From contig CAYHTV010000003.1 in NCBI GenBank assembly GCA_964359575.1, positions 1 to 45,171 of the forward strand: a stretch of DNA of 45,171 nucleotides, written 5' to 3'. This stretch comes from an uncultured Planctomycetales bacterium (GTDB taxonomy: Bacteria > Omnitrophota > Gorgyraeia > Zapsychrales > GWA2-47-8). A model generated the notes under the pieces. The model saw only the letters and a list, made by a program, of their open reading frames with translations, was not told where the DNA came from and did not search any database. Below, piece after piece: positions 4,844-42,715 of this stretch (position 1 is its first letter; the number at the start of each line of letters is the position of its first letter). The translations under genes and the position numbers were made by a program.

Positions 4844-6220
4844 ATGCCAAGAATAAATTCAAAAGACAAAGTAAGAATCAATCAGGAGGAAGAAGCCATG
4901 GAAAACGGAAGTGCTAAAACAGCCGATAAGGAGAGAGTCCCTTCGGTCAAATCAGCTGATCGCGAGAATCAGCTGGATATTACTAAATTAAAGGATATGA
5001 AAATATCCGAGCTCAACAAGACCGCCAAGGATATGGGTATCGACGGGTTGAGTGGCATTAAAAAGCAGGATTTGATTTTTAAAATTCTGCAAAGTCAGGC
5101 GGAAAAAGAGGGCCTTATGTTCGGGGAGGGGACTCTCGAGATCCTCTCGGAAGGTTTTGGTTTCTTGCGCAGCGTGAATTACAATTATCTGCCGTGCCCG
5201 GATGATATTTATGTTTCTCCCTCACAAATCCGGCGGTTTGATTTGAAAACCGGCGACAGTGTCAGCGGCCATATCCGCCCGCCTAAAGATGGCGAGAAAT
5301 ACTTTGCGCTTTTGAAGGTTGAAGCGGTCAATTATGAAAATCCCGAGAAAGCGAAAGATAAAATTCTCTTCGACAATTTAACCCCGCTTTATCCGCAGGA
5401 GCGGATTGTTTTGGAGACAACGCAGAATGAGACATCAACGCGTATTATGGACATCATTACGCCCTTAGGCAAGGGGCAGCGCGCCTTAATCGTGGCCCCG
5501 CCTTATAGCGGGAAGACCGTCCTGCTGCAAAAAATTGCGAATTCCATCACGCAAAATAATCCGGATGTTATTTTGATGGTGCTGTTGATCGACGAACGGC
5601 CGGAAGAAGTCACGGATATGCAGCGGCACGTGAAGGGAGAGGTCATTGCCTCAACTTTCGATGAACCGGCGGAGCGGCACGTGCAGATTGCCGAAATTGT
5701 TTTGGAAAAGGCTAAGCGCCTCGTTGAACATAAAAGGGATGTGGTGATCCTTTTAGACAGCATTACCCGGTTGGCGCGGGCGTACAATACGGTTGTACCG
5801 CACAGCGGTAAAATTCTTTCTGGTGGCGTGGATTCCAACGCGCTGCATAAACCCAAGCGTTTTTTTGGGGCCGCGCGAGCGGTGGAAGAGGGTGGGAGCC
5901 TCACGATTATTGCCACCGCTTTGGTAGACACCGGCAGCCGCATGGACGAAGTTATTTTTGAGGAATTCAAAGGGACCGGCAATATGGAGTTGCAATTGGA
6001 TCGTAACTTATTCCAGCGCAGGATTTATCCGGCTATCGATATTAAACGCTCCAACACGCGCCATGAGGAGTTACTCGTAGGTAAAGACGAGTTGCAGAGG
6101 ATATGGCTGTTGCGCAAGGCTATCCATGATCTGAATTCGGCTGAGGCCATGGAGCTTTTGATCGATAAAGTTTCCAAATACAAGAGCAATAAAGAATTTT
6201 TTGACAATATGAATAAATAG
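4844..6220 (+). CDS. rho: Transcription termination factor Rho (start possibly 4898)
   Basis: [66 protein letters not shown]. Confidence 0.98.
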
Positions 6221-6255
6221 CTTATAATTTATCCTCTATTAATTGAGGATTCTCT

Positions 6256-6358
6256 TATTGACCTTTGTAGAACCAAAAGAATTGAGGTAGTCAATATTGG
6301 CCTTTGTCTCCTCAATGATAAATCCAAATTTTTTTCTTTAGTTGTACAAAGGCCCATA
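6256..6358 (+). mobile_element. Element A, 103-bp MITE-like repeat (length includes both flanking TA)
   Basis: Imperfect terminal inverted repeats tattgacctttgtagaacc / agttgtacaaaggcccata; near-identical copies elsewhere in the window. Confidence 0.85.
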
Positions 6359-6589: not shown

Positions 6590-7660
6590 ATGCTTGATAA
6601 GCTGGAAAAAATTGAGAAACGCTACCGGGAATTAGAGACCCAATTGGCGGATGCCAAAATTATTTCCGATCAGGGTCAGTACCAAAAGTTAGTGAAAGAA
6701 TACGCCAGCTTGACCCCCACCATCGAGGCCTTCAGCGAGTACCGCGAGACCCAAAGCCAAATCACCGAGCTTATCTATCTTCTTAAAGATAAACATGACA
6801 AGGATTTTGAAGAATTGGCCAAGGCGGAGTTAGAGGAGCTGCAAGCCCGTCAACACGCTTTAACCGCTACATTAGATATTCTCCTTCATCCACGAGAAGA
6901 AGACAAAGATCAAAATGTGATTTTTGAAATCCGCGCTGGGACCGGCGGCCAAGAGGCCAGCCTTTTTGCCGCTGATCTATACCGTATGTACAGCAAATAT
7001 GCGGATAAAAGGGGCTGGAAATTTGAATTATTGAGCAGCCATCCCTCGGAGGCCGGCGGATTTAAGGAAATTATTTTTAGTATCGGCGGGTCTGGTGCTT
7101 CGCGGACTTTAAAATGGGAAGGCGGTGTCCATCGTGTGCAGCGCGTTCCAACGACTGAGGCCTCGGGCCGGATTCACACCTCAGCGGCCACAGTAGCGAT
7201 TCTTCCCGAACCGGAAGAGGTTGAAATCAACATAGATTCCAAAGATTTGAAAATTGATGTGTTCCGTTCTTCGGGGCCGGGTGGACAAAGTGTTAACACA
7301 ACGGATTCTGCAGTCCGATTAACCCATATCCCAACGGGGATGGTCGTGGTGTGCCAGGATGAGCGATCGCAGTTAAAGAATAAAATTAAGGCTATGCGTG
7401 TTTTGCGCGCGCGGTTAAACGATAAAATCAAACAAGAAAATTTCGAAAAGACTTCCAAAGACCGCAAGGCCATGGTCGGCACCGGGGATCGCAGTGAAAA
7501 AATCCGCACTTACAATTTTCCCGATCGGCGGGTGACGGACCACCGCATTGGGTTTACGACTCACCAATTGATGAGTTTACTGGATGGAGAATTGGACGAA
7601 CTTATGGAAGCTCTGATGAAGGCGGAACGCAGCGCTCAAACCGGAGCAAAATCTCCATGA
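6590..7660 (+). CDS. prfA: Peptide chain release factor 1
   Basis: GGQ motif (GPGGQSVN), HRVQRVPTT (PxT), EKIRTYNF. Confidence 0.97.
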   Translation: MLDKLEKIEKRYRELETQLADAKIISDQGQYQKLVKEYASLTPTIEAFSEYRETQSQITELIYLLKDKHDKDFEELAKAELEELQARQHALTATLDILLHPREEDKDQNVIFEIRAGTGGQEASLFAADLYRMYSKYADKRGWKFELLSSHPSEAGGFKEIIFSIGGSGASRTLKWEGGVHRVQRVPTTEASGRIHTSAATVAILPEPEEVEINIDSKDLKIDVFRSSGPGGQSVNTTDSAVRLTHIPTGMVVVCQDERSQLKNKIKAMRVLRARLNDKIKQENFEKTSKDRKAMVGTGDRSEKIRTYNFPDRRVTDHRIGFTTHQLMSLLDGELDELMEALMKAERSAQTGAKSP

Positions 7661-8472
7661 CCGAGCAAGAACTCATGTTAACTTCTATCTTGGAATGCGA
7701 GCGCGTTGACTTATACGTGGATCATCCTGTCCTTTCGCCGTCGCAAAAACAGCGCCTGCAAGAAATGCGCATCTCCCGGCAGAGGGGTGAGCCGTTGCAG
7801 TATATTCTTGGCTCGAGTGAGTTTATGGGGTTAAAATTGAAAGTAGATCAGCGTGTCTTAATCCCTCGGCCGGAAACGGAATTGCTGGTTGAGGCAGTGA
7901 TCGAAAAGATTAAATTATTTTTTCAAAGGAAAAGTTTGCAGATTTTAGATCTGGGAACAGGGTCTGGCAATGTCGCGATCAGTTTAGCGAAATTTGTTGA
8001 GCATTGTCAGGTCACAGCCATAGACATTTCCCAGGAAGCGATTGATGTAGCTTCGCAAAATGCTAAAGCGCAGCAGGTGGATCAGAAGATCCATTTTGTC
8101 TGCGCTGATATGGCCGATTATCTTCGCGAGCCGTGCACGACTCAAAGCACATTCGACATAATCATCTCGAATCCTCCCTATATTCCAACGGATCAACTTG
8201 CGTATCTGCCGCGCGATGTTCAGCGCGAGCCTCATCGAGCGCTGGATGGGGGGAGCGAAGGTATGGATTTTTACCGATTGATTTTGGCGCAGAGTAAATA
8301 TTTTTTAAACCATTCAGGATTTCTTTTTTTTGAAGTTGGAGATGGCCAGCGGGCGAAGTTAGAAAAACTATGTTCATCTTATGTCCCATTTGCTAAAATT
8401 GAATTCCATAAAGATTATGCTCAAACAGAGCGAATTATGATTTTAATAAATTTTTCCGATACGAAAGGTTAA
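7657..8472 (+). CDS. prmC: Release factor glutamine methyltransferase
   Basis: VLIPRPETE, LDLGTGSG, SNPPY; follows prfA. Confidence 0.95.
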   Translation: MTEQELMLTSILECERVDLYVDHPVLSPSQKQRLQEMRISRQRGEPLQYILGSSEFMGLKLKVDQRVLIPRPETELLVEAVIEKIKLFFQRKSLQILDLGTGSGNVAISLAKFVEHCQVTAIDISQEAIDVASQNAKAQQVDQKIHFVCADMADYLREPCTTQSTFDIIISNPPYIPTDQLAYLPRDVQREPHRALDGGSEGMDFYRLILAQSKYFLNHSGFLFFEVGDGQRAKLEKLCSSYVPFAKIEFHKDYAQTERIMILINFSDTKG

Positions 8473-12800: not shown

Positions 12801-12810
12801 TTTATCCCGT

Positions 12811-12913
12811 TATTGACCTTTGTAGAACCAAAAGAATTGAGGTAGTCAATATTGGCCTTTGTCTCCTCAATGATAAATCCAAATTTTTTTCTTTAGTTGT
12901 ACAAAGGCCCATA
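12811..12913 (+). mobile_element. Element A copy
   Basis: Matches the 6256-6358 copy; TA at both ends; 10 nt after the trpF stop. Confidence 0.85.
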
Positions 12914-12987: not shown

Positions 12988-13407
12988 ATGCTGGAAATGA
13001 CTGTCGAAAATATCATGTGTGATCATCCCATTAAGGTGAAAGATAATATCCGGGTGGGAAGTGTCGCGCATTTGCTTTTGCGGCATCAGATCAATGGGAT
13101 TTTGGTCGTGCGGGAAGATGATGAAAATCAACTGGTTGGAATCTTAACGACGACGGATCTGCTGCGGCTGATTAGCGAGGCGCTCTCAAAGCGCCGGCAG
13201 AGGATCAATGCCCTGAAGCGAGTGGCCGAACTGAAGGTCGGGCAAGTCGCTACGCGAAAGGTTATTTCACTTTCTAAAAATGATACGATTATGAAGGCCC
13301 TGGCTCTGATGCATCGAAAAAATGTGCACACGATTCCAGTATATAGCAAGAAAAAACTTGTTGGGGTTATTGGAAAACACGATATTTTGAACATGGCGCT
13401 TATTTAA
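12988..13407 (+). CDS. CBS-domain pair protein
   Basis: Two CBS repeats (LVGILTTTDL, LVGVIGKHDI); ATG 12988 follows SD aaggagg. Confidence 0.85.
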   Translation: MLEMTVENIMCDHPIKVKDNIRVGSVAHLLLRHQINGILVVREDDENQLVGILTTTDLLRLISEALSKRRQRINALKRVAELKVGQVATRKVISLSKNDTIMKALALMHRKNVHTIPVYSKKKLVGVIGKHDILNMALI

Positions 13408-13444
13408 AATTGCCGTTTTAACATTTCTGTTAAATTTTTTTTCA

Positions 13445-13537
13445 CAGCATAGGAAAGTATAAAACTTTCCTAGCTGCTAAAAAATCCTCTTCTATGCAGC
13501 AAAGAAGTTGCGACGAACGAAGTGAGGAGTTTTCTTG
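13445..13537 (+). mobile_element. Element B, 93-bp structured repeat
   Basis: cagcataggaaagtataaaactttcctagctg...gaggagttttcttg; 3 substitutions relative to the 15082 and 26578 copies. Confidence 0.8.
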
Positions 13538-14027: not shown

Positions 14028-14176
14028 GGTGAAAGTGTGAATAAGTTTTATCCCTCGCTTCATTAAATTTGCAATATCCAGATTCTATTTCAATACTAGA
14101 AAGGCGAGGGATAATACCGCGTTTTTCTAAATGTAATATTGCAGATTTTTTGAAACGCGGTATAGGAGGAATCATT

Positions 14177-14907: not shown

Positions 14908-15846
14908 ATGTCTGCCCAAGAATATTTAGCCCGCATGAAAACGATCCTTTGCGAAGGGGGAAAGGCTGCCCTTGGACTCATTGACAATAGCCGGCCCACG
15001 CTTAAAAAGGACGGCTCCGTGGTGACGCTGGCGGATGAGAAAGTTTCTCAGCTGGCGCACACTATTTTGCAAGATTTTTTACAGCATAGGAAAGTATAAA
15101 ACTTTCCTAGCTGCTAAAAACTCCTCTCCTATGCAGCAAAGAAGTTACGACGAACGAAGTGAGGAGTTTTCTTGAAAACGTCGCAGCATATTCTTATCGA
15201 TGAGGAGGATCCTGCTGGACATCGATATTTGGATCAGGCGATTTTGGAAAAGGTTCCTTTTATTTGGACGATCGATCCGATTGACGGCACCCGCAATTAT
15301 GTGAATCGTATGCCCAATTTTGGCATTTCGGTTGGGCTTATGAGGGATTTAAGGCCTTGGGTTGGGGCGGTGTATTTTCCGGCGCTGAAGGAGTTATTTT
15401 TTTGTGATGGCGTGGAAGCGTACTTTGTGCAAAATGCTTTTACCTTCGATGAGCGGCTGACCAGAATCCGTCCCCTGGACCAGCGGATCACGAACCAATC
15501 GATTTTTTTGTGCATCGACAATTTTGCAAAAAAATTTCAATGGGATTACCAAGATTGTCATTTGATGACGCAGGCCTGCGCGGCCGTGGACTTGTGCTGG
15601 CCGACGATTGGACGCGGGTGCGGGGCCTTTTTTAAATCATCGCTGTGGGATTTTGTGGGGCCGTGGCCGATCGTCTTGGCGGCTGGTTTGAATTTTCGTT
15701 CCCTTGCGTCCGGTAAAATATTAGACCGTATCCAAGTGGATTTATTTTTGGAAGAGCACACGCCTTGGAAATTGCGCGAGCCGTATATTCTTTCGTCCGA
15801 GCGTAATTTTTCTATTCTTAAAAGTAAAATTCGGACTCTTTATTGA
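14908..15846 (+). pseudogene. Inositol monophosphatase-family gene interrupted in frame by element B (pieces 14908-15099 and 15172-15846)
   Basis: N part KKDGSVVTLAD; C part LIDEE, WTIDPIDGT, LWD; both in the same frame; removing 15082-15174 gives ...QDFL-KTSQHILIDEE... Confidence 0.8.
15082..15174 (+). mobile_element. Element B copy inside the IMPase gene
   Basis: Identical to the 26578-26670 copy. Confidence 0.85.
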
Positions 15847-15943
15847 CCTTTGTAGAACCAAAAGAATTGAAGTAGTCAATATTGGCCTTTGTCTCCTCAA
15901 TGATAAATTCAAATTTTTTTCTTTAGTTGTACAAAGGCCCATA
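15841..15943 (+). mobile_element. Element A copy inserted in the IMPase stop codon
   Basis: 2 substitutions relative to the 6256 copy; reconstructed empty site reads act ctt TAA. Confidence 0.85.
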
Positions 15944-16054: not shown

Positions 16055-16624
16055 GTGAAAAGTAATCATTTTTCAAAAATTTCAAAAATTTTTTTGATTG
16101 TCGTCATTATGATCGCCTGTGACAGATTTGCTGGGGCTAATACTCCGTATCAGAACGCCATTTTGGAAATGCAGCTGCGGGATTTTACGATGTTTCACAA
16201 CGAGTTTCCTAAAGGAATGTGGGACAATAACGCAAATGCCAGGATGTCGGCTGCTGAATTTCGCCAGATGCAGCAGCTTGCACGACAATTGAGTCAGGAA
16301 AATCATAGCCTTCAACAGGCCTTAACCGAGCGGCAAGCGGATCAAGCCAGTATGCTCGATAGCATCAAAAAGGCAGAAGAAGAAAAGCAACAGCTGCAAG
16401 CCGCGCAGCAGAAAATTCAGGATGAATATTCGCAGATGGAATCATCCTTAAGCCAGCAGCTGGCGGAAAATAAACGGTTGCAGGATGAGCTTACCCAAAG
16501 CCAGGAGGGATTTAATCAAAAATTGCTGGATTTTTATAAGGAGGAAGAGATACGCTTAACTCAGCGGATTGAGGAAATTAGGAAAAAACAGGAAGAGTTA
16601 AATAGTGCATCGGGAAATTTGTAG
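16055..16624 (+). CDS. Exported coiled-coil hypothetical protein
   Basis: N-terminal hydrophobic segment, long Q/E/K heptad region; GTG start after ggag. Confidence 0.7.
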   Translation: MKSNHFSKISKIFLIVVIMIACDRFAGANTPYQNAILEMQLRDFTMFHNEFPKGMWDNNANARMSAAEFRQMQQLARQLSQENHSLQQALTERQADQASMLDSIKKAEEEKQQLQAAQQKIQDEYSQMESSLSQQLAENKRLQDELTQSQEGFNQKLLDFYKEEEIRLTQRIEEIRKKQEELNSASGNL

Positions 16625-18761: not shown

Positions 18762-18797
18762 CAGTGGTGATATACTTAACTTAAAGATTTTTTATTT

Positions 18798-18890
18798 CAG
18801 CATAGGAAAGTATAAAACTTTCCTAGCTGCTAAAAACTCCTCTCCTGTGCAGCAAAGAAGTTACGACGAACGAAGTGAGGAGTTTTCTTG
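18798..18890 (+). mobile_element. Element B copy
   Basis: 1 substitution (cctgtgc for cctatgc) relative to consensus. Confidence 0.85.
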
Positions 18891-21399: not shown

Positions 21400-22149
21400 A
21401 TGCGGGCAAAGTTTTTACGAAAAGTTTTGGGATTTTTATTTTTTCTGCCTGCGGGGATGGGGCAGGTCGCCGTGGCCCAGGATGCCGAAACGATCCCGGC
21501 CATGAATACGCTCGTGCCCGCGTTTGAATCATCTGCGCCAAAACGCGCAGCGGAATTACGGCCGTATAAACGGTATTTTGTTGAGTCGGGAATTGTAGAA
21601 TATATTATCAGCGGGACCCAAAGCGGTATCGAAATTGCTTATTTTGACCGTTGGGGCAGACGCGAGGCCAGATATACAAAGTCCGAAGTCGCCGGGTTGG
21701 GATTCTCGAATACTTTGACTATTATTGACGGCGAATGGATTTACACGATTCATTTGGACAAAAAGATCGGCAGTAAAATCAAAAATGAATTACTCATGAA
21801 AGCCCTTGAGGAATCCAGCCCTGAAGATAAGACTCCGCTGGGTGAGAAAATGATGAGTCTAGTTGGCGGAGAAAAAATTGATAACGAGCGGATTGGTGAG
21901 AAAATGTGTGATATTTGGGAAATCAAGCATCAAGGGCAAAAATTTTGGATATGGAATGGGATCCCGCTTAAAAGCGAGCAAAAGACCGCCTTCGTTGATA
22001 CGACGTTTGCGGCGGTGAGCCTGCAGGCGGGAGCCCTGATCTCCGAAGAAAAATTTAAAATCCCGGAAGATATTAATTTTATTGAAGGCAATATTAATGA
22101 TATGTTGTTGAGTTTATTGACCTTTGTAGAACCGAAAGAATTGAGGTAG
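21400..22149 (+). CDS. Exported hypothetical protein (C-terminus supplied by element A)
   Basis: Signal peptide ...AVAQ; beta-rich body; last 10 residues LTFVEPKELR encoded by element A. Confidence 0.75.
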   Translation: MRAKFLRKVLGFLFFLPAGMGQVAVAQDAETIPAMNTLVPAFESSAPKRAAELRPYKRYFVESGIVEYIISGTQSGIEIAYFDRWGRREARYTKSEVAGLGFSNTLTIIDGEWIYTIHLDKKIGSKIKNELLMKALEESSPEDKTPLGEKMMSLVGGEKIDNERIGEKMCDIWEIKHQGQKFWIWNGIPLKSEQKTAFVDTTFAAVSLQAGALISEEKFKIPEDINFIEGNINDMLLSLLTFVEPKELR

Positions 22150-22217
22150 TCAATATTGGCCTTTGTCTCCTCAATGATAAATTCAAATTTTTTTCTTTAG
22201 TTGTACAAAGGCCCATA
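22115..22217 (+). mobile_element. Element A copy overlapping a CDS 3' end
   Basis: 2 substitutions relative to the 6256 copy; TA at both ends. Confidence 0.85.
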
Positions 22218-22236
22218 AAGAAATGGCCGGCTTTCC

Positions 22237-26487: not shown

Positions 26488-26572
26488 AAATTTTGAAATC
26501 TTAAATACTAAATTCGAAACAATTTCGAAATTAGAAATTCTAATTTGTCTTGTATTTAGTATTCAGAATTTT
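26488..26572. repeat. Periodic ttcgaaa-type hairpin repeat, family D
   Basis: aatactaaat / atttagtatt arms; shares cgaaacaatttcgaaatt with the reverse complement of 35130-35173. Confidence 0.65.
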
Positions 26573-26577
26573 TTTGA

Positions 26578-26670
26578 CAGCATAGGAAAGTATAAAACTT
26601 TCCTAGCTGCTAAAAACTCCTCTCCTATGCAGCAAAGAAGTTACGACGAACGAAGTGAGGAGTTTTCTTG
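26578..26670 (+). mobile_element. Element B copy upstream of trpB
   Basis: Identical to the 15082-15174 copy. Confidence 0.85.
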
Positions 26671-33339: not shown

Positions 33340-35010
33340 ATGTTAGTCAATCTCCAAGAGCAGTTAAAAGACGTTATTTCCCAATCGCTTCGCGAATCGC
33401 ATAAATCTCTCACCGAATTTCCTCCAATCGTCCTGGAAATTCCCAATGACAAAAAGCACGGGGAATTTTCCTGTAATATTTCTCTGCAGTTAGCCAAACC
33501 GCTTCGCCGGTCCCCCTTAGAGTTAGCCGCCCAACTAGTAGCGGCCATTCAAAAAAATGTTGAAAGCAGTCCCTTAAACGGGCATCTTCAGAAAATTGAT
33601 GTGGTGCGGCCGGGATTCATCAATTTTTATTTAAGCCCTGGGGCGCTTTATGTCACCTTGAGCGAGGTTTTAAAAGAAGGAAAGAATTTCGGTTCATCGG
33701 CGTTTGGCAAGAAGAAAAGAGTTCAAGTGGAATTTGTCAGCGCCAATCCGACGGGACCGTTGAGTGTCGCCCATGCCCGTCAGGCAGCCGTAGGGGATGC
33801 CTTGGTGAATATTTTGAATTTTGTCGGGTTCGCTGCCCAAAAAGAATTTTATGTGAATGATGAGGGAAATCAGATTAATATTTTGGGGCGTTCGGTAGAG
33901 CTGCGCAGCCGCGAAGTTTTAGGTGAAAAAATTGAGTTTCCCGAAGATTGTTATCAGGGCGATTATATCCTCGACATGGCTAGAATTTATATGGAGCAAA
34001 ACAAGGTGGGGAAAATTGCGGATTTGGAAGGTAAGGCCGATCGTATCCGGCAGTTTGCGGTAGATTATTTGCTCAATGTGATTAAAAAGGAATTGGATGA
34101 TTTTGGCGTGCATTTTGATGTGTGGGCGCATCAGTCGAAAATTGCAACCAAAGAGAATATTGAAGCGGTTTTGGATTTTCTAGGTGAAAAGGGATTCCTT
34201 TATGAAAAAGAAGGGGCATTGTGGTTTAGGTCCACGGATTTTGGTGATGACAAGGACCGAGTGGTTGAAAAAAGCGATGGTAACTATACCTACCTCACCC
34301 CTGACATCGTTTATCACCAAAATAAGTTCAAGCGGGGATTTGAAAAGGTTATCAATATTTGGGGGCCGGATCACCACGGGTATATTCCGCGTATTAAAGC
34401 CGTGGTGGAGGCCTTAGGGTATGACCGCGATGATGTGGAGGTCTTGATTGTGCAGCTGGCGACGCTTTATCGTGGCGGCCAGCCGATTTCGATGTCGACG
34501 CGGCGGGGGCAGTATATCAGCTTACGGGAAGTGATGAGTGAGGTGGGGGTGGATGCGGCCCGTTTTTTCTTTCTAATGCGGCGCATCAGTGCGCATCTGG
34601 ATTTTGATCTGGAATTAGCCAAAAAAGAGACACCGGAAAATCCCGTCTATTATATTCAATACGCGCACGCACGCATTTATAGTGTCTGGGATAAGGCCAA
34701 GGAAGTCAATCTGGCAGCGAGGCATACGCATTTTTCTCTCCTTAAAAATGAAGAGGAGCTGGATTTGCTTAAAAAAATCGGTCAGTTTCCGGGAGTTTTG
34801 ATTTTATGCGCCGAGCAGCTCGACCCTTACGCGTTGGTGAATTATCTGCACGAATTGGCCACGATGTTTCACCGATTTTACGATAAGCACCGCGTGATTG
34901 ACCAAAATCCTGATCTTGCCGCAGAGCGGTTGGCTCTTTTGGACGCGGCGCGCATTGTTTTGGCTAATGGCTTAAAATTGTTGGGTGTCGGCGCGCCGAA
35001 GAAAATGTAG
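33340..35010 (+). CDS. argS: Arginine--tRNA ligase
   Basis: EFVSANPTGPL, WGPDHHGY, MSTRRG, YYIQYAHARI, APKKM. Confidence 0.97.
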   Translation: MLVNLQEQLKDVISQSLRESHKSLTEFPPIVLEIPNDKKHGEFSCNISLQLAKPLRRSPLELAAQLVAAIQKNVESSPLNGHLQKIDVVRPGFINFYLSPGALYVTLSEVLKEGKNFGSSAFGKKKRVQVEFVSANPTGPLSVAHARQAAVGDALVNILNFVGFAAQKEFYVNDEGNQINILGRSVELRSREVLGEKIEFPEDCYQGDYILDMARIYMEQNKVGKIADLEGKADRIRQFAVDYLLNVIKKELDDFGVHFDVWAHQSKIATKENIEAVLDFLGEKGFLYEKEGALWFRSTDFGDDKDRVVEKSDGNYTYLTPDIVYHQNKFKRGFEKVINIWGPDHHGYIPRIKAVVEALGYDRDDVEVLIVQLATLYRGGQPISMSTRRGQYISLREVMSEVGVDAARFFFLMRRISAHLDFDLELAKKETPENPVYYIQYAHARIYSVWDKAKEVNLAARHTHFSLLKNEEELDLLKKIGQFPGVLILCAEQLDPYALVNYLHELATMFHRFYDKHRVIDQNPDLAAERLALLDAARIVLANGLKLLGVGAPKKM

Positions 35011-35025
35011 GCTTTGCATAGATAC

Positions 35026-35128
35026 TATTGACCTTTGTAGAGCCAAAAGAATTGAAGTAGTCAATATTGGCCTTTGTCTCCTCAATGATAAATTCAAATT
35101 TTTTTCTTTAGTTGTACAAAGGCCCATA
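35026..35128 (+). mobile_element. Element A copy
   Basis: 3 substitutions relative to the 6256 copy; TA at both ends. Confidence 0.85.
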
Positions 35129-35129
35129 A

Positions 35130-35173
35130 GAGTTCGAATTTCGAAATTGTTTCGTATTTCGTGATTAAAATTT
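35130..35173. repeat. Half copy of family D repeat before recJ
   Basis: aatttcgaaattgtttcg is the reverse complement of a segment in 26488-26572. Confidence 0.6.
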
Positions 35174-35176
35174 TCT

Positions 35177-36871
35177 ATGAGCATATTGATAACCAAACGC
35201 TGGATCATCAAACCACCTCATCCGCAATTGCAGGTGCAGCTGAGCAACGCCCTGCAGATTCACCCCATTATTGCGCAGCTTTTGGTTAATCGAGAAGTTG
35301 ACCAAGAAGCAGATGCGAGGGATTTTCTTTTTGGGAATTTGGCGGATCTCCATGACCCGTTCTTACTTAAGGATATGGATCGGGCGGTAAATCGCATTCA
35401 TAAAGCGAGAGACAGCGATGAGCTGGTTTTGATTTTTGGCGATTATGATGTGGATGGGGTTACATCTTCCGCGCTTTTGAACTTTGTCCTCAAAAAAATT
35501 GGGGTCAGGGTCATGCATTATATTCCGCACCGGATGCATGATGGGTATGGATTGAATCATGACATCGCGCAGTTAGCGAAGGAAAAAGGAGTCAGCCTGC
35601 TTATTGCCGTTGATTGCGGTATCACGGCCCACAGCGAGGTTGCCAATCTCAATTCCGTTGGGGTTGAGGTCATAATTTTTGACCATCATGAACCTCCGCC
35701 GGAAGGAATTCCATCGGCTGTCGCCGTTGTTAACCCTAAACGGGCTGATTGCGCCTATCCTTTCAAAAGTTTGGCCTCCGTTGGGTTGATGGCAAAATTG
35801 ATCCAGGCTTTGCTTGGAAAAATCGACGAAGATTATTTGGATTTGGTGGCCTTGGGGACGATTGCCGATGTGGTGCCACTGCGCGGAGAAAATCGGATTT
35901 TTGTCAAAAACGGTTTGCCGAAAATCGCCCAGACTAAAAATCCAGGACTGTCCGCCCTTTTAGATGTCGCGAAGATTAAAGGAAAAGCGATGCGGCCATT
36001 TTATGTGGGATTTATTTTAGGCCCGCGGATCAACGCGACCGGCCGTATGGACTCGGCCCAAAAGTCTTTAGAATTATTTTTAAGTGAAGACGCTGATGAG
36101 GCTTATGCGCTAGCGCAATTTTTAGACAAACAAAATTCCGAACGGCAAAAAATGCAGCGCGATATTGTTCAAGAGGCGTTTGATATCGTTGAGCGGGAGG
36201 TCAATTTTAAAGATCACAAGGTGATTGTGGTTGGAAAGGCAGGCTGGCATAAAGGGGTTTTAGGCATCGTGGCATCGCGTTTGACGGAAACCTATTATCG
36301 GCCGAGTATCGTGATTTCCTTTAGCGAGGGGATAGGAACAGCCTCGGCCCGCTCTATAGAGGGTTTTCACTTGCATGAGGCTTTAACGCATTGCGCAGAA
36401 ATGCTGGAAGGCTACGGCGGCCACCGCCTCGCCGCTGGCTTGACGATCAAAGAAGAAAACATTGATCCTTTCCGCGGTTTGATTAATCAATTCGCGCACA
36501 GTGTTTTGCGGGAAGAGCATCTTATCCCGACTTTAAAAATTGATTGTGAAATTTCTTTAGGGAGTTTGGATCTCAAACTCGTGGAAATTGTGGATTCGCT
36601 GGAACCGTATGGAGAAGGAAACCCTTTACCGGTTTTTTGCTCGCGGAATCTCACCGTCAAAAGTCCGCCGGCGATTTTAGGTAAAGACACGCTTAAATTC
36701 TGGGTGACCGATGGTGAGGCCGCGTTCTCAGCGGTGGGTTTCGGTATGGCCAAGTACCGTGATCTGGTACAATTAGGGCAAAAGGTCGACCTCGCCTATC
36801 ATTTGACAATCGATGACTACCACAAACAACCCACGGTGCAGTTGAAGTTGAAGGATATTAGGGAAAGTTGA
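35177..36871 (+). CDS. recJ: ssDNA exonuclease RecJ
   Basis: GDYDVDG, DCG, DHH, GTIADVVPL, PRINATGR, GGH, LEPYGEGN. Confidence 0.97.
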   Translation: MSILITKRWIIKPPHPQLQVQLSNALQIHPIIAQLLVNREVDQEADARDFLFGNLADLHDPFLLKDMDRAVNRIHKARDSDELVLIFGDYDVDGVTSSALLNFVLKKIGVRVMHYIPHRMHDGYGLNHDIAQLAKEKGVSLLIAVDCGITAHSEVANLNSVGVEVIIFDHHEPPPEGIPSAVAVVNPKRADCAYPFKSLASVGLMAKLIQALLGKIDEDYLDLVALGTIADVVPLRGENRIFVKNGLPKIAQTKNPGLSALLDVAKIKGKAMRPFYVGFILGPRINATGRMDSAQKSLELFLSEDADEAYALAQFLDKQNSERQKMQRDIVQEAFDIVEREVNFKDHKVIVVGKAGWHKGVLGIVASRLTETYYRPSIVISFSEGIGTASARSIEGFHLHEALTHCAEMLEGYGGHRLAAGLTIKEENIDPFRGLINQFAHSVLREEHLIPTLKIDCEISLGSLDLKLVEIVDSLEPYGEGNPLPVFCSRNLTVKSPPAILGKDTLKFWVTDGEAAFSAVGFGMAKYRDLVQLGQKVDLAYHLTIDDYHKQPTVQLKLKDIRES

Positions 36872-36884
36872 AAATAGAAAAATG

Positions 36885-36918
36885 TGCTATACTTATTATG
36901 TACGTAAAAACGTACATA
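36885..36918 (+). promoter_or_regulatory. TA promoter (extended -10) and palindromic operator
   Basis: TGcTATACT 36885-36893; tatgtacgt-aaaa-acgtacata 36897-36918 (TGTAC half-sites as in YefM operators). Confidence 0.65.
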
Positions 36919-36947
36919 TATAAGCTTATTATAAGGAGGAGGGGATA

Positions 36948-37202
36948 ATGACTGTCTTAAGCGCTACTGATGCACGTAATCAATGGTTTGAATTATTAAG
37001 GAGATCGGTTAAGGGACACCGCGTTTATCGAATTCTCTCCAAAGAAGGAGAAGTCGTTCTTCTTTCTAAAGAAGATTACGAAAATCTTTTGGAGACTTTG
37101 GAATTGTTGTCCACCCCTGGTTTTAAGCAAAGTATTCGTCAGGCTAAAAAGGAAATCAAGCAAGGGAAGACGTATTCCATGGATGAGGTATTTGGTGGTT
37201 GA
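36948..37202 (+). CDS. Phd/YefM family antitoxin
   Basis: LSATDARNQ...VVLLSKEDYENLLETLELLS. Confidence 0.9.
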   Translation: MTVLSATDARNQWFELLRRSVKGHRVYRILSKEGEVVLLSKEDYENLLETLELLSTPGFKQSIRQAKKEIKQGKTYSMDEVFGG

Positions 37203-37461
37203 GAGAAAATCTTATACTATCCGCATCACCCAGCGCGCAAAGAAGGATATCGATAAATTAGATCCTCATTCTAAGAAAAAACTGCACGACATTCTTGCCG
37301 AAGTTATTATTTACAATCCTTATGAAGGAAAAAAATTGATCGGCGATCTGTTAGGACATTACTCCTATAGACTGAATTATAAAGATAGGATTGTTTACAG
37401 CATCGATGAGCAGAATAAAGTCATTTATATTGAACGGGCTCGAACGCATTATGGGACATAA
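37195..37461 (+). CDS. RelE/YoeB (Txe) family toxin; start 37195 or 37183
   Basis: AKKDIDKL, GKKLIGDLLGHYSYRLNYKDRIVY, RTHYG; overlaps the antitoxin. Confidence 0.9.
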   Translation: MVERKSYTIRITQRAKKDIDKLDPHSKKKLHDILAEVIIYNPYEGKKLIGDLLGHYSYRLNYKDRIVYSIDEQNKVIYIERARTHYGT

Positions 37462-37491
37462 AAGCTTCTCACTGATGAACCCGCCAATGAT

Positions 37492-38850
37492 TTACGGAAT
37501 CGTCTCAACCGCAAGTTCGAGTATTAGGCCGTTATTTGGGCTTGGAGCGTAAACCGATTTTAATGGGCTGAAAATTCCGGTTGTTAAATCCCCGGTCGTA
37601 AACAAGATTTTTTGTTGACGTATACCTGTAGTACGATTATCTTCATATAAAACCGCAATGGGAACGGTGTTGGAATATCTTCCTTGGAGTGTAGCCACAA
37701 AGCCATAACTCTCCGATACTGGAGTATTGACTTGTCCAAGAGGGATTTGTTGAAGATTTTGATAAAGGGGTGGTCCGGAAAAAAGATAAGCTGTTAAGGT
37801 GTCAGCCCCAGCCCATTGCCCCCGCGTTAGTCGAGCAGCGGCAAAAAATAAAGAAGGCGCAAGATTAGAATCTGCTGTGCCCATCTGTTGAACATTTTCA
37901 GCATCAGGAACGGTTAAAAGATCCTGCCAAGTTCCCGAAATTTTCGCCCTAAAGGCTGCGCCAGTGAACGGAATTCCAGTTTTTTGTATCGGCAAGGACA
38001 TCGAATTTATCGAAGGAGAATATTGCATCCCACTCCCCAGTAATTGCGTATTTATCGTATGATTCCCGCTAATTATCTGCGGTGGATTTTTGACAGCTAA
38101 AGTCAGGGGATCAAGAGTCATTTCATATATGGAACGAGAGGCGGCTGGCAAGAAAAATCCGTTGGTATGAAATCTCACCAATAGTTCATTTTTTTGTGAA
38201 TCATACATTATTCCCATGCCATCGGGCAGATCCCCGCTTTGATTTACTGTGGTAATCTTTTGCCATTGTGGTTGGGTCGTAAAATTTGGACTTTTGCCCA
38301 CCCAAATGTCCAGTGCATTAGTGCCGGATAAAGGATCAGCCACCCCACAAACAAAGTATTGCTCAATGGTTACTGGATTAACGGCCTGATCGCAGCCAAC
38401 AACATTTAGTGTTCCACCTGTGGGAACAGGGAGGTTGATGGTTCGATAAATAAAACTATTGGGCGCGCTAAGATTCGGAATTGTCACTTCATGGAAGTTA
38501 GGTATCGCATAGATGCCGTTACCCTTTATTTCTTCAAATGTAATGTAGGTTAAACCAGCCAAATCTTTGTTTATTTTTATATCAACCGGCACATGAGTAC
38601 TTCCTGTGTATAAGACAACCGGCGCGGCACTCACCCCTATTTTTGAGTCAACCCGAATGAGTTCCACTGTCCTATTGTTTGCAGTGAAATTGATTTTGGA
38701 ATAAACGACAAAATGATCATAGGAAGGTTGACTGAGGGGTGCCTTTAATTTTTGAGAATTAAAGGAATCGACTGCGGCTTGGCCTGGAGTGGTTAATAAA
38801 ACATAAAATCCGCATAAAATGTAGCCCATGGTTCGTAGTATATTTTTCAA
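37492..38850 (-). CDS. Secreted hypothetical protein (about 452 aa), beta-rich
   Basis: TTG start after SD aaggag; signal peptide; rich in N/P/Q/T/S. Confidence 0.75.
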   Translation of the reverse strand: MKNILRTMGYILCGFYVLLTTPGQAAVDSFNSQKLKAPLSQPSYDHFVVYSKINFTANNRTVELIRVDSKIGVSAAPVVLYTGSTHVPVDIKINKDLAGLTYITFEEIKGNGIYAIPNFHEVTIPNLSAPNSFIYRTINLPVPTGGTLNVVGCDQAVNPVTIEQYFVCGVADPLSGTNALDIWVGKSPNFTTQPQWQKITTVNQSGDLPDGMGIMYDSQKNELLVRFHTNGFFLPAASRSIYEMTLDPLTLAVKNPPQIISGNHTINTQLLGSGMQYSPSINSMSLPIQKTGIPFTGAAFRAKISGTWQDLLTVPDAENVQQMGTADSNLAPSLFFAAARLTRGQWAGADTLTAYLFSGPPLYQNLQQIPLGQVNTPVSESYGFVATLQGRYSNTVPIAVLYEDNRTTGIRQQKILFTTGDLTTGIFSPLKSVYAPSPNNGLILELAVETIP

Positions 38851-38929
38851 TTTCTTCTCCTTGGTTAAAAAGTTTCTTAATCTCCTAAACGAAAGGATAA
38901 CATTTTTTTTGGGGGGGGGCAAGGGCTGT

Positions 38930-39035
38930 CAATAATTTTTGAGAAAACGAATTCAGCCGTTAAAAAGAATTCTTACGCCTTGGTGATTTTGCCGGCTTTG
39001 ATGCAGCCGGTGCAGACGAGAATTGTCTTGATGGT
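38930..39035 (-). repeat. Duplicate of the rpmB 3' end and downstream sequence (att-like direct repeat)
   Basis: 38973-39035 matches 40584-40646 at 60/63 nt; weaker similarity continues about 40 nt past the stop. Confidence 0.9.
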
Positions 39036-39038
39036 AGC

Positions 39039-39068
39039 AGCTGAGGGACCTAAATTCGTCCCTCAGCT
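39039..39068. other. 11-bp perfect hairpin at the cassette junction
   Basis: agctgagggac-ctaaattc-gtccctcagct. Confidence 0.7.
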
Positions 39069-39089
39069 TAGTAGCGCCGTGGCAGTAAT

Positions 39090-40445
39090 CTATTTTTTTT
39101 GCCAAAGAGGTTCAATTGTGTATAAAGGAAGCTGAGGCAGGGATATAACCACAGTATTCCATTTTTGAAGATTACTATTATGTCCTAAAATAAGTTTTAC
39201 GGAAAATTTTTGATTCGCCGCATCGTATTCGGTAAAAGCAACAGCGAGGTTATAAATTGCGGAATTGGGAAGTGCGTATACACTGTCTGAAAGATTAAAC
39301 CCACCAACACGAGCATTGTTGGGTACTGTATAAACGGTATTTTTTGTCCAACTCCATTGATTGTTTATAAGTAATCCGTCGTAGAGATCAATAGTGTTTC
39401 TAATGGGGAGGCAGATACCAAAATTGCACACGAGGCTGTTTATATCGACAGCAATATAACCGCTTTGATTGTTCGATGCCATCAGTTGATGAGCAAAATA
39501 TGCCTGAGGGAAAGACAGATAATTGACCCAAGTTCCAGCGCTTGACTTGTAGAGAAAACTAATTCCTCTTGGATCTGTCTGGATGTTAAGGGGTTCCGCC
39601 ATTGTCAAATGTGACGCGTTTAAATTTCCTTGTTTTAATGAGTTGAAACGATCGTTTGAATAGGCTGGGTTCGTGGTCGTAGGTAAGGCTATGGCCGGAA
39701 CGACAATATTTCCATTAAGGTCTATGGACATAATTTCAGGGGCAGGAGGAAGAGGATTGCCACTAAAAATATTAGGTTGAGGGTAGTACATGACCTGAAT
39801 TTGACGGTTCGTAGTATCGAGCGTTGCCGCAAATTCTGAGGTAAATCCTCCTGTCAAGGATATAACTACTGGAGTCCCTATTGGGACAAATTGAGGTACG
39901 GCAGGTGTCTTTTTAAACAAGCTCAGTGTTGCAGCGTTTTGATTATTAAGAGGGGAAAGATTGATAGTCACTAAATAGTATTCCGCAGATATTGAGTCAT
40001 AAAGGATTTCGGTTTCAAGTAAGTTGCCGGGAAGGGAGATTTTCTGGGTAATCATTTTCGCGATATCCCCTTGCGGAAGAGTTACTATCGTAATGTCGGG
40101 GATTTGACTCACCGGCAAAGCGATGGTGAGAGTATTATCTGGGGCAATATGAGACATTGTGTTATATAAACTAGGCGATAAATTATTTAAAAGCCTTGAA
40201 TCCAAAACAGTCCTTTTATTAAGGACATTAACCTGTGCCAAATGCAATTCTGTAGGACCTTGGCTTGATGCTCGACTCAGATAAACTAGATTTAAATCGT
40301 AAGGCGTAGAAGGATAAAAGGGTTGAGTTTGAGTGACAGTTTGTTGAAAAGCCGCTGAGGCCGCGGAACAGCTAATCGCTAGCAAATATCCAAATATTAA
40401 AAGTAAAAATTTTTTTATGAATACTTCATTTAAATAAGTTACCAT
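39090..40445 (-). CDS. Secreted hypothetical protein (451 aa), beta-rich
   Basis: SD aaggagg; signal peptide ...SAASAA; composition like 37492-38850. Confidence 0.8.
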   Translation of the reverse strand: MVTYLNEVFIKKFLLLIFGYLLAISCSAASAAFQQTVTQTQPFYPSTPYDLNLVYLSRASSQGPTELHLAQVNVLNKRTVLDSRLLNNLSPSLYNTMSHIAPDNTLTIALPVSQIPDITIVTLPQGDIAKMITQKISLPGNLLETEILYDSISAEYYLVTINLSPLNNQNAATLSLFKKTPAVPQFVPIGTPVVISLTGGFTSEFAATLDTTNRQIQVMYYPQPNIFSGNPLPPAPEIMSIDLNGNIVVPAIALPTTTNPAYSNDRFNSLKQGNLNASHLTMAEPLNIQTDPRGISFLYKSSAGTWVNYLSFPQAYFAHQLMASNNQSGYIAVDINSLVCNFGICLPIRNTIDLYDGLLINNQWSWTKNTVYTVPNNARVGGFNLSDSVYALPNSAIYNLAVAFTEYDAANQKFSVKLILGHNSNLQKWNTVVISLPQLPLYTIEPLWQKK

Positions 40446-40583
40446 AATTCCTCCTTGGTATTTTTTGGTTTTTTAAAAATATCATGCTATTTTTGTCATC
40501 TTAGAAAGGATATACTCATTCCTGGAAAAAAGCAAGAATACCAAAAAATTTTGAGAAAACGCTCTCAGCCGTTAAATAATTTT

Positions 40584-40808
40584 TTACGCTTTGGTGATTT
40601 TGCCGGCTTTGATACAGCCGGTGCAGACGAGGATTGTCTTGATGGTGCCTTGGAGGTTGACTTTGACTCGCTGGAGATTAGGGAGGAAGCGGCGTAATGT
40701 TTTGCCGACGATTTTAGAACCGGCCCCGCCTTTACGCCTGATCATACCGCGTCTTTTATATTTATTTCCGGGGATTGATCCTTTTTCGCAAATGGCGCAT
40801 CTTTTCAT
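40584..40808 (-). CDS. rpmB: 50S ribosomal protein L28
   Basis: CAICEK...GN...RRFLPNLQ...VCTGCIKAGK. Confidence 0.95.
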   Translation of the reverse strand: MKRCAICEKGSIPGNKYKRRGMIRRKGGAGSKIVGKTLRRFLPNLQRVKVNLQGTIKTILVCTGCIKAGKITKA

Positions 40809-40823
40809 AGAAGATTCCTGATG

Positions 40824-40902
40824 AACTTAAAAGTTAAAGGTCAAAACTTAAAATGAGAGAGCGTATATTAGTTTTGACTTTTTAGTTTTGAATTTTAACT
40901 TT
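40824..40902. repeat. Periodic AT-rich inverted repeat, family C, upstream of rpmB
   Basis: aacttaaaagttaaaggtcaaaact...agttttgactttttagttttgaattttaactt. Confidence 0.7.
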
Positions 40903-40972
40903 CTTTAGTTTGCTATTTAATGAAGTATGAGTATAATGGAAAAAGATATTTTGTCAATTATTTTTTGTCCAG

Positions 40973-42715
40973 GTGGAGCAAATGACCGGAATAGCCAAAG
41001 ACCTCAATTTTGCAGCCTTGCCGCATTATCAAAAGCGAAAATTTTTACCCGAAAAAGTCAATTTTAGCAATAAAGAGGAAGCGGCGGCGGTCTATGAAAG
41101 GCTGCTGAGCCGCTCCATTAACTCAGCCAAAGATTTAGAGCAATGGCTGCTGGACCGTTCGGAATTAGAAACCGCCTTAGATCAAGCCGGATCGGTACTC
41201 TACATCCGCATGACCTGCCAGACAAACGACCCAGAGAGAGCCAAGGCCTATCAGCATTTTATCGAAACGGTCGTACCAGCGGTTAAACCTCTTGACCATC
41301 AGCTTAATCAAAAATATTTGCAGGCAGTGAGCAATTTTCCGTTGGAGTCTAAGCGTTATGCGCTGTATGATCGGCGGATTCGCAGTGATATGGATTTATT
41401 TCGTCAGGAGAATATCCCTCTGCAGACCGCGGTGGCGCTTTTGGCACAGGAATATCAAACGATCTGCGGCGCGATGATGGTCAATTTTCAAAGTAAAGAG
41501 CAGACACTCCCGCAGATGGGGAAATTTTTGCTGGAGCCTGAGCGTGGACTGCGTGAGGCAGCCTGGCGCGCCACAGCCCATCGGCGGCTTCAGGATAGCG
41601 CCAAACTGGATGCTCTCTTCGATGAAATGCTCAAACTCCGCGATAAAATTGCCCACAATGCGGGACTGAAGAATTTCTGTGAATATCAATTCCAAACCTA
41701 TCATCGTTTCGATTACACGCAGAAAGATTGTGAACAATACCATCAAGCCATTGAGCAACTGGTTGTTCCTCTTTGGAAAAAGATTTTGGAGAAACGCCGT
41801 CAACAGATGAAGCTGGATACTCTCCGTCCTTGGGATACGGCAGTGGATCCTTTGGGAAGAAAGCCGCTTAAGCCATTTCAAGAAGTCCCCGAGCTGCTGG
41901 AGGGGGTAAAGAATATTTTTTTAAAAATGGATCAAGACCTAGGCCAACAATTCGCCGAAATGATAAAGCTTGGTCTTTTGGATTTAGCCAGTTATAAAGG
42001 CAAGGCGCCAGGCGGGTACCAAACCGTTTTGGCCGAGGCGCGCAAACCTTTTATTTTTATGAATGCCGTTGGCGTCGACGATGATGTGCGTACCCTTTTG
42101 CATGAAGCAGGGCACGCCTTTCATGCGCTTGCCAGCAGTCATCATCCGTTGTTTGCCTATCGTCATGCGCCTATGGAATTTTGCGAAGTTGCTTCGATGA
42201 GTATGGAACTTTTAGGCGGTGAGTACTTATCGGTTTTTTATGATTCCGAAGATTGGCAGCGCTCGCATGCGATACAACTTGAGGAAATGGTTTATATCTT
42301 GATTTGGGTGGCGGTGATTGACGCTTTTCAGCAATGGATTTATCAGAGCCCTGACCATAACTTAGAGGAAAGATCCGCGGCATGGCTGCGGATTCATCGC
42401 CGTTTTGGCGCGGACTTAGTTGATTGGAGCGGCTTGGAAAAAGAGCAGGGCTGGCTGTGGCACCGGCAGCTGCATATTTTTGAAGTACCTTTTTATTATA
42501 TTGAGTACGGCATCGCGCAACTGGGGGCCTTACAGTTATGGACAAGGGCGAAGAAAGATTTAGCCGGGACGTTGGCTGATTATCGCAAGGCCTTGAGTCT
42601 CGGAGCCTCACGTCCGCTGCCAGAGCTGTTTACCGCGGCTGGTCTAAAATTTGATTTTTCAGAAAAGACAATTGCCCCGCTCATGCAGGCGATCAAAGCA
42701 GAGCTAAAAGTTTAA
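40973..42715 (+). CDS. M3 family oligoendopeptidase
   Basis: HEAGHAFH, EVASMSME, PFYYIEY. Confidence 0.93.
   Translation: MEQMTGIAKDLNFAALPHYQKRKFLPEKVNFSNKEEAAAVYERLLSRSINSAKDLEQWLLDRSELETALDQAGSVLYIRMTCQTNDPERAKAYQHFIETVVPAVKPLDHQLNQKYLQAVSNFPLESKRYALYDRRIRSDMDLFRQENIPLQTAVALLAQEYQTICGAMMVNFQSKEQTLPQMGKFLLEPERGLREAAWRATAHRRLQDSAKLDALFDEMLKLRDKIAHNAGLKNFCEYQFQTYHRFDYTQKDCEQYHQAIEQLVVPLWKKILEKRRQQMKLDTLRPWDTAVDPLGRKPLKPFQEVPELLEGVKNIFLKMDQDLGQQFAEMIKLGLLDLASYKGKAPGGYQTVLAEARKPFIFMNAVGVDDDVRTLLHEAGHAFHALASSHHPLFAYRHAPMEFCEVASMSMELLGGEYLSVFYDSEDWQRSHAIQLEEMVYILIWVAVIDAFQQWIYQSPDHNLEERSAAWLRIHRRFGADLVDWSGLEKEQGWLWHRQLHIFEVPFYYIEYGIAQLGALQLWTRAKKDLAGTLADYRKALSLGASRPLPELFTAAGLKFDFSEKTIAPLMQAIKAELKV

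Follow-up and report, generated by a model that had tools for sequence, protein, structure and literature searches.

The window analyzed here, 45,171 nucleotides (nt) long, is an entire contig (C3) of a 152-contig, 91%-complete metagenome bin (assembly of 1.97 Mb; G000) of a groundwater Omnitrophota bacterium. In this genome and in that of a sister species, another species of the same genus (G001), the 3′ end of rpmB, the gene for ribosomal protein L28, is a recurrent insertion site at which no integrase is visible. The duplicated rpmB end found there is tentatively read as the scar, and perhaps also the working anchor, of integrase-free capture of small foreign cassettes.

The last 20 codons of rpmB and its stop codon (copy A; Table 1) are repeated farther along in the direction of rpmB transcription (copy B), with 3 of 63 nt being different. 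All three differences (ATC/ATT, TGT/TGC, and AAA/AAG) are synonymous in the L28 frame. Past the stop codon, the copies agree in 31 of 40 alignment columns (78%) and then in 35 of 60, and a 9-nt block common to both lies ∼85 nt past the stop. The upstream boundary of the repeat is abrupt; across it, the copies match at 12 of 60 positions, which corresponds to random, so that identity drops from 95% to 20%. When the entire assembly was searched with BLAST, the two copies including their post-stop stretches matched with 89% identity (E 1e-32), and the repeated rpmB end was present in two copies, with no third. The alignment and the open reading frame (ORF) between the copies thus bear out what a preliminary description of this DNA had reported, namely, an rpmB end duplicated with three synonymous changes and a more diverged post-stop stretch, bracketing a single gene for a 451-amino acid (aa) protein. 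Its further claim, that both copies had once been under coding selection, fares less well: the changes are indeed synonymous only, but there are just three of them, and outgroups suggest that at least one (TGT) probably arose in the working rpmB. The extension of the similarity past the stop codon fits a related rpmB locus, rather than the attachment site (attP) of an element, as the donor, in line with the earlier proposal that the unit came from a relative. The post-stop stretch itself appears promoter-like by eye; this is a mere reading of the letters, because a promoter and terminator scan gave counts equal to those of shuffled sequences. Rfam had no match in 36800-41000 and only sub-threshold chance matches in the corresponding locus of the sister species.

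That the unit is an insertion was concluded from the arrangement in relatives. Full-length rpmB matches were obtained in 60 of the 61 genomes searched, and the rpmB neighborhoods of 59 other genomes (the sister species and 58 of the order) were compared. In 55 of these 58, rpmB adjoins recJ tail to tail, with the stop codons −4 to 754 nt (mostly <150 nt) apart, which shows this arrangement to be the ancestral state. In two of the remaining three, the contig stops less than 300 nt away; in the third (G054, contig C18; L098), a rearranged locus, rpmB is followed by ribonucleotide reductase genes and a DUF433/DUF5615 pair, without a repeat, and there is no recJ within 5.7 kb downstream. The rpmB–recJ gap is 3713 nt in the present genome and 5689 nt in the sister species, and inserts between the two genes were found only in these two species. 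Scanning metagenomes for recJ yielded 52 loci, 21 of which also carried rpmB (the sister species' own contig excluded), with gaps of 14-234 nt; no further member of the genus was among them, the one 84%-identical locus being the sister species' own contig. Comparison of the rpmB–recJ interval across relatives, which the preliminary description had proposed as a check, therefore confirms the insert. It covers the order, the genus being represented by two genomes in the collections searched.

In the sister species, the displaced rpmB end lies 1729 nt downstream of the working one, is identical to it at 60 of 60 nt, and ends exactly at the stop codon. Its left edge is at codon 56, as compared with codon 55 in the present genome, that is, 3 nt apart. 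Between the copies, a 73-aa ORF and an AAA_14/DUF4143 ATPase gene (on the other strand) are found, and the displaced end is followed by a lipoprotein-like ORF, an HNH endonuclease, an HTH protein, an AbiEii toxin, and others. Besides the rpmB ends, the inserts of the two species share no similarity, whereas the genes flanking the rpmB locus are ∼77% identical between them. The arrangement is, thus, not fixed in the relatives; the same place holds different cargo. Apart from the repeat of the sister species, 965 kb of relatives' DNA contained no direct repeat of 50-250 nt with a spacing of 0.5-8 kb, which makes two independent random hits at one site very unlikely.

The ATPase gene (L158-L167, including its relatives), which is preceded by a palindrome, looks like a horizontally moving single gene, because it is 74-89% identical to copies across other families of the order, where recJ is at ∼60-65%. 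In nine other genomes, only the gene and ∼50-125 nt upstream are common to its loci, which carry no comparable flanking duplications; short repeats of 20-70 nt are present at two of the nine. Just before the displaced rpmB end of the sister species (L043, ∼7340-7505), a non-coding stretch, which contains a hairpin as well as conserved blocks and matches no Rfam family, has partial intergenic counterparts in other genera (aligned for G006, G031, G035, and G058, weaker in G012, G024, and G033); that of G035 adjoins an NYN-like gene. A 172-aa ORF of the same genome that by eye resembled a GIY-YIG nuclease received no support from family scans and was not used.

The bin comprises 152 contigs and has low depth (∼5x in the runs used), which raises the concern that shared sequence caused one strain to be misjoined to another, or the chromosome to a small circle. 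Such an artifact is extremely improbable. Because the two copies differ at 11% of their positions, each junction is unique, and single contigs from individual sequencing runs cross copy B (38383-39136 in run X5, 38912-39379 in X4, and 38917-39345 in X1) as well as copy A (39914-40734 in X1 and 40525-40970 in X4), at 0-1 mismatches; alternative joints were not observed. Two studies contributed these runs, one X1 and the other X4 and X5; run X8 of a third study spans parts only, with the same likeness. One of the bridging runs may itself be the source of the bin. The same layout occurs in the sister species, which counts as one observation because a single record underlies both its metagenome contig and its genome contig. 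A chimeric assembly, which the preliminary description had named as a concern, is thus contradicted by contigs from the runs of two studies bridging both junctions.

Read in the direction of rpmB, the M3 peptidase gene is followed by rpmB with copy A, the 451-aa ORF, a hairpin, copy B, the gene for a 452-aa protein, the Phd/ParE pair, and recJ (Table 1). The L28 product is unchanged by the insertion, and the cargo forms a gene of its own, preceded by a ribosome-binding site. In the L28 frame, copy B lacks a start codon; the 451-aa ORF shares this frame, although a TAG and a TGA stand between the two. Only 3 nt separate the end of the hairpin from copy B.

Table 1. Features of the rpmB–recJ region, with positions in the window.
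Feature	Position	Strand	Remarks
M3 peptidase gene	40973..42715	+	Divergent from rpmB; conserved neighbor on its other side, syntenic in many relatives; Pfam PF01432
rpmB (ribosomal protein L28, 74 aa)	40584..40808	-	Intact; Pfam PF00830 Ribosomal_L28, E 1.3e-11
Repeat copy A	40542..40646	-	Working rpmB end (40584-40646) and ∼43 nt past the stop; weaker likeness to ∼40497
Cargo gene (451 aa)	39090..40445	-	Putatively exported or lipoprotein-like ORFan; strong ribosome-binding site; G+C content (GC) 0.395, GC at third codon positions (GC3) 0.347
Hairpin 3′ of the cargo gene	39039..39068	-	Perfect 11-bp stem, no T-run after it; -24.2 kcal/mol, z -3.5
Repeat copy B	38930..39035	-	Displaced rpmB end (38973-39035) and ∼43 nt past the stop; weaker likeness to ∼38885
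Gene for 452-aa protein	37492..38850	-	Putatively exported; all-beta, propeller-like model; paralogues on contig C25
ParE-like toxin gene	37183-37461	+	Pfam PF15781/PF05016; within the inserted interval; low GC3
Phd/YefM antitoxin gene	36948-37202	+	Pfam PF02604; within the inserted interval; pair spans 36948..37461
recJ	35177..36871	+	Ancestral convergent neighbor of rpmB; Pfam DHH, DHHA1, RecJ_OB

Judged from its N-terminus, which contains basic residues, a hydrophobic run, and a lipobox-like or Ala-X-Ala motif, the 451-aa protein is probably exported. A single-sequence AlphaFold model contained a confident N-terminal helix; its overall predicted local distance difference test score (pLDDT) was 36, which is useless for the fold. 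A word-indexed search of 5.8 billion clustered proteins and a full HMMER search of 1.84 billion representatives returned no match other than the protein itself, and neither it, nor the 452-aa protein, nor five small ORFs of the sister species could be assigned to a Pfam, PHROGs, or NCBIfam family. The GC3 of all four island genes ranges between 0.35 and 0.40, as compared with 0.50-0.56 for rpmB, recJ, argS, and the M3 peptidase gene. As an ORFan of low GC3, the cargo looks foreign. For the 452-aa protein, three homologues at 48-54% identity were found, one of them source-named Omnitrophica, in addition to two paralogues elsewhere in the same assembly. Its AlphaFold model (from a six-sequence alignment) is all-beta (pLDDT 61; predicted template modeling [TM] score 0.68), and the best Foldseek matches were six-bladed sialidase-type propellers, a loose likeness (TM 0.36-0.49).

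Because both genes encode ∼450-aa, apparently exported proteins after the same rpmB end and promoter-like stretch, a tandem duplication of “rpmB end plus exported-protein gene,” with later divergence of the copies, had to be considered. A language-model protein search placed both proteins near the same clusters (scores 0.85-0.90, to be taken as leads only), and the two can be aligned colinearly over a short segment around residues 282-324. However, comparison of the profiles gave a probability of 0.5% (E 0.12), full HMMER with the 451-aa protein missed the 452-aa family, and the gene bodies lack similarity at the DNA or six-frame level (best blastn E 0.34, tblastx E 0.16), so the genes after the two copies are not recognizable as paralogues. 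As the bodies would have had to diverge beyond recognition beside flanks that are still 78-95% identical, this very improbable explanation is excluded.

If not by duplication, the cargo could have arrived with the help of a recombinase, but none was found in either island when all ORFs were scanned against Pfam, and none on this contig or on contig C13 of the sister species, which carries its locus, when PF00589 and PF00239 were searched for. The earlier statement that no recombinase is nearby, therefore, holds. On other contigs, each genome encodes two Xer-sized tyrosine recombinases, to which two fragments (present genome) and two further full-length enzymes (sister species) are to be added. 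A transposon or insertion sequence is not indicated: scans against Pfam, PHROGs, and NCBIfam detected no transposase family; terminal inverted repeats were not found, the flanking duplication measures 60-105 nt, and the 451-aa cargo gene is single-copy in the genome. The locus does not have the makeup of an integron either, as the contig lacks a tyrosine recombinase and 35000-42000 contains a single perfect hairpin, 3′ of the cargo gene, but no family of attC-like repeats (no attC model was run).

Integrase-dependent islands, in contrast, deserve closer comparison. In Streptococcus, integrative and mobilizable elements (IMEs) and integrative and conjugative elements (ICEs) use the 3′ ends of rplL, rpmE, rpmG, and rpsI, and cis-mobilizable elements (CIMEs) retain attL and attR without integration genes, according to a review (PMC5704250), in which rpmB is not mentioned. 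A limited literature search found no report of rpmB as attB or integrase target either. The rpmB locus resembles these elements in that the 3′ end of a ribosomal protein gene is used, the gene is kept intact via one repeat, and the displaced end marks the far border; the lack of an integrase, with att-like flanking repeats but no integration or transfer genes, corresponds to the CIME as defined in the review (PMC5704250). The repeats could, thus, be attL and attR remnants of a tyrosine or serine integrase element at the rpmB 3′ end, the integrase of which was lost or acts in trans. The same site with different cargo in two species, the boundaries of which are only 3 nt apart, would be accounted for; so would the identity ending exactly at the stop codon in the sister species, and both genomes do encode tyrosine recombinases. 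The end of the gene for transfer-messenger RNA (tmRNA), a classical att site, also adjoins a flanked one-gene insert in the present genome (see below). Despite these points, this explanation is unlikely. Neither island, nor this contig, contains a recombinase or a fragment thereof; the island of the present genome has no relaxase either; no element occupies the other 58 rpmB loci of the order; and a pattern scan for the rpmB end on viral contigs gave 0 matches, so that no cognate ICE or IME using the same site was found in the 58 relatives, on viral contigs, or in the genome collection, where further rpmB-end copies were absent except in the sister species and in unrelated actinobacterial records. 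No third repeat copy lies near any integrase in the present genome, nor does one of the rpmB end in the sister species. In the present genome, the similarity is not confined to a gene-end att core but continues for 43 to ∼85 nt past the stop into non-coding DNA, which a copy of the gene end on attP does not explain. Moreover, the cargo ends of the two species contain no common motif that could serve as arm sites (229 and 135 of 300 shuffles scored as high in local alignments), and the cargo, a single ORFan gene here, amounts to only 1.5-1.7 kb.

Alternatively, the rpmB end might have been duplicated once, in the ancestor of the genus, and been kept alike by gene conversion while its flanks were replaced, in which case it would have no role in mobility. 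Both species carry a single displaced copy, the two starts being no more than 3 nt apart, and among the relatives compared, no genome outside the genus has any. Furthermore, each copy is closest to its own rpmB (3 sites distinguish copy B from copy A, and 7 distinguish it from either copy of the sister species), which is a signature of concerted evolution. Keeping an unselected 60-nt relic at 95-100% identity, however, while flanking genes have drifted to ∼77%, requires frequent conversion, a process for which 60 nt is close to the minimum length. The cargo differs between the species on both sides of the copy, and the post-stop similarity in the present genome would require a second event. 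A single old duplication, therefore, appears improbable.

Tentatively, and with somewhat less than even confidence, the rpmB end is interpreted as a homology anchor, by which small foreign cassettes are captured and exchanged at the rpmB/recJ junction without an integrase. DNA from a related cell, carrying an rpmB end plus cargo, would pair with the resident rpmB end via host homologous recombination, whereas its far side would be joined illegitimately, right after the strong hairpin of the cargo. The incoming rpmB end would from then on complete L28, and the old end, together with the promoter-like stretch and its gene, would be pushed downstream. Once two direct copies are present, host recombination could loop out a circle consisting of one rpmB end and the cargo, which would re-enter only at rpmB. 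Loop-out and re-entry would explain the shared boundary, the likeness of the copies within each genome, the unrelated and turned-over cargo, the absence of a recombinase, and the similarity past the stop. Orphan arrays of Rhs genes in the present genome share the layout, a gene-end piece preceding each displaced module, which supports an anchor function. Of the earlier proposal that the unit integrated at rpmB and displaced the old end, the insertion and the foreign cargo, thus, stand, and the mechanism is upheld only as tentatively as stated above. A growing cassette array, as also proposed, is not what was observed; each species has one displaced end, and no third, older remnant was found beside recJ in either.

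Several points weigh against capture and exchange via a homologous rpmB end. A homology of 60 nt is short for host recombination. The origin of the first duplication is left unexplained. The synonymous-only pattern comprises three sites, the left boundaries differ by 3 nt between the species, and the post-stop similarity exists in the present genome only, not in the sister species. Between species, the codons of the rpmB end differ at 5 of 19 shared residues, compared with about half in recJ and the M3 peptidase gene; as 5.4% of the 20-codon windows in the flanks are equally low, this excess of likeness in the rpmB end is weak. Among the assembled contigs of the runs, which hide rare variants, neither a circular joint nor one of an empty site was seen. 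Turnover of the cassettes is deduced from two states, because the collections searched contain two genomes of the genus. Finally, an insertion elsewhere in the genome, on contig C30, suggests that target-duplicating insertion may exist and could apply to rpmB, because it is difficult to envisage, for C30, a donor that had the flank in question.

This locus was among those found when the whole genome was compared with itself for two-copy direct repeats around small inserts. On C30 (L180), the start of a membrane-protein gene is duplicated (13171-13266 and 14047-14142; 96 nt, 100% identical) around an insert of 780 nt with a broken NYN-like gene, and the empty site, in single copy, is present in all three relatives compared (G001, G003, and G004); ∼96 nt of the target appear to have been duplicated upon insertion. 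On contig C14 (L179), the repeats (15521-15615 and 16469-16563; 95 nt, 98% identical) consist of the last 18 nt of the tmRNA gene (15089-15538) and 77 nt beyond, and surround one NYN/LabA-like gene without an integrase. ARAGORN assigned this tmRNA an unusually long tag of 32 residues, marked “not identified.” On contig C26 (L181), two copies of the 5′ part of a fabZ-like gene (5398-5533 and 7994-8129; 136 nt, 99% identical) enclose three genes, one of which has, by eye, Rhs-tip-like sequence; in four relatives, no DNA counterpart of this locus was found and, hence, no empty site is shown. The inserts at rpmB, on C14, and on C30 are each single-copy in the genome and mutually unrelated. Rhs loci with orphan modules are present on contigs C39 (L190, 66-7068) and C12 (L191, 305-5366). 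Their main genes encode 1289 and 1384 aa and are followed by genes for Sel1/TPR proteins and by short ORFs repeating a conserved Rhs piece; in front of each displaced module stands a conserved main-gene piece of 280-366 nt with ∼87% identity.

Together, C14, C30, C26, and the Rhs loci indicate that duplicated gene pieces around inserts are habitual in this genome rather than peculiar to rpmB. The earlier wording, a cassette targeting a ribosomal protein gene, is, thus, right as to the rpmB site but maybe too narrow. It is conceivable, if doubtful, that the rpmB end is a portable attachment site that needs no recombinase, the cassettes carrying it being looped out and reinserted solely by homologous recombination of the host (or that a site-specific break near codon 55/56 seeds capture), and that it represents one face of a general mode of single-gene uptake in Omnitrophota with target duplications of 60-160 nt. 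To our knowledge, no described prokaryotic mobile element generates target duplications of 60-160 nt.

Islands inserted into the end of a conserved gene, for which they supply a replacement end, are textbook knowledge, and they are defined by their integrase. Likewise, tRNA-anchored additive islands and tycheposons depend on recombinases encoded by the elements. They share with the rpmB locus a hot spot behind a conserved gene and cassettes lying between partial copies of its 3′ end; at rpmB, in contrast, no recombinase is visible and the anchor is a protein-coding gene. Orphan rhs/cdiA modules are described (PMC3967940) as displaced fragments that keep a conserved part and recombine with the main gene. 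There, as at rpmB, a repeated 3′ piece stands before a displaced module, the new module works, and the old one is kept downstream (PMC3967940). Unlike rhs/cdiA, however, rpmB is a housekeeping gene with an unchanged product; the variable part is a separate gene and not the C-terminal tip of the same protein with an immunity gene, and the repeat is shorter (60-105 nt compared with 280-520 nt in Rhs arrays). Homology-facilitated illegitimate recombination (PMC3240628) combines one homologous anchor with one joint lacking homology and was described in laboratory crosses. The single anchor, the boundary drop from 95% to 20%, and the dispensability of a dedicated recombinase are in line with it (PMC3240628); it is not known to reuse one site, and it does not by itself explain a boundary common to two species. 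In a tandem lipoprotein gene cluster of Staphylococcus aureus, the unit is reported to comprise the 3′ region of one ORF, the intergenic region, and the 5′ region of the next ORF (PMC2568036). A block of gene end and intergenic DNA is, thus, repeated between variable genes for exported proteins in both cases (PMC2568036), but that cluster, as portrayed there, is a long array of paralogues, whereas the bodies are unrelated and the end is derived from rpmB here.

Two families of interspersed repeats were also observed in the window. Copies of ∼104 nt, 96-100% identical and with internal inverted segments, are located at 6255-6358, 12810-12913, 15840-15943, 22114-22218, and 35026-35130, the last of these between argS and recJ; many more are on other contigs. 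Partial copies at both ends of the contig (1-54 and 45121-45171) suggest that this repeat probably breaks the assembly. A second, unrelated family of ∼100 nt (93-99% identical) occupies 13436-13537, 15075-15174, 18785-18890, and 26569-26670.

Of the mechanisms considered, a homology anchor is tentatively favored over att remnants and over gene conversion of an old duplication. Irrespective of which applies, two species display a known footprint at the same ribosomal protein gene, each with cargo unrelated to that of the other and without a visible recombinase. If host recombination acting on a carried gene end suffices to render a cassette mobile and site-specific, small uncultivated genomes lacking the classical machinery would have a simple route by which to gain and exchange genes, and island finders based on integrases would miss such cassettes.

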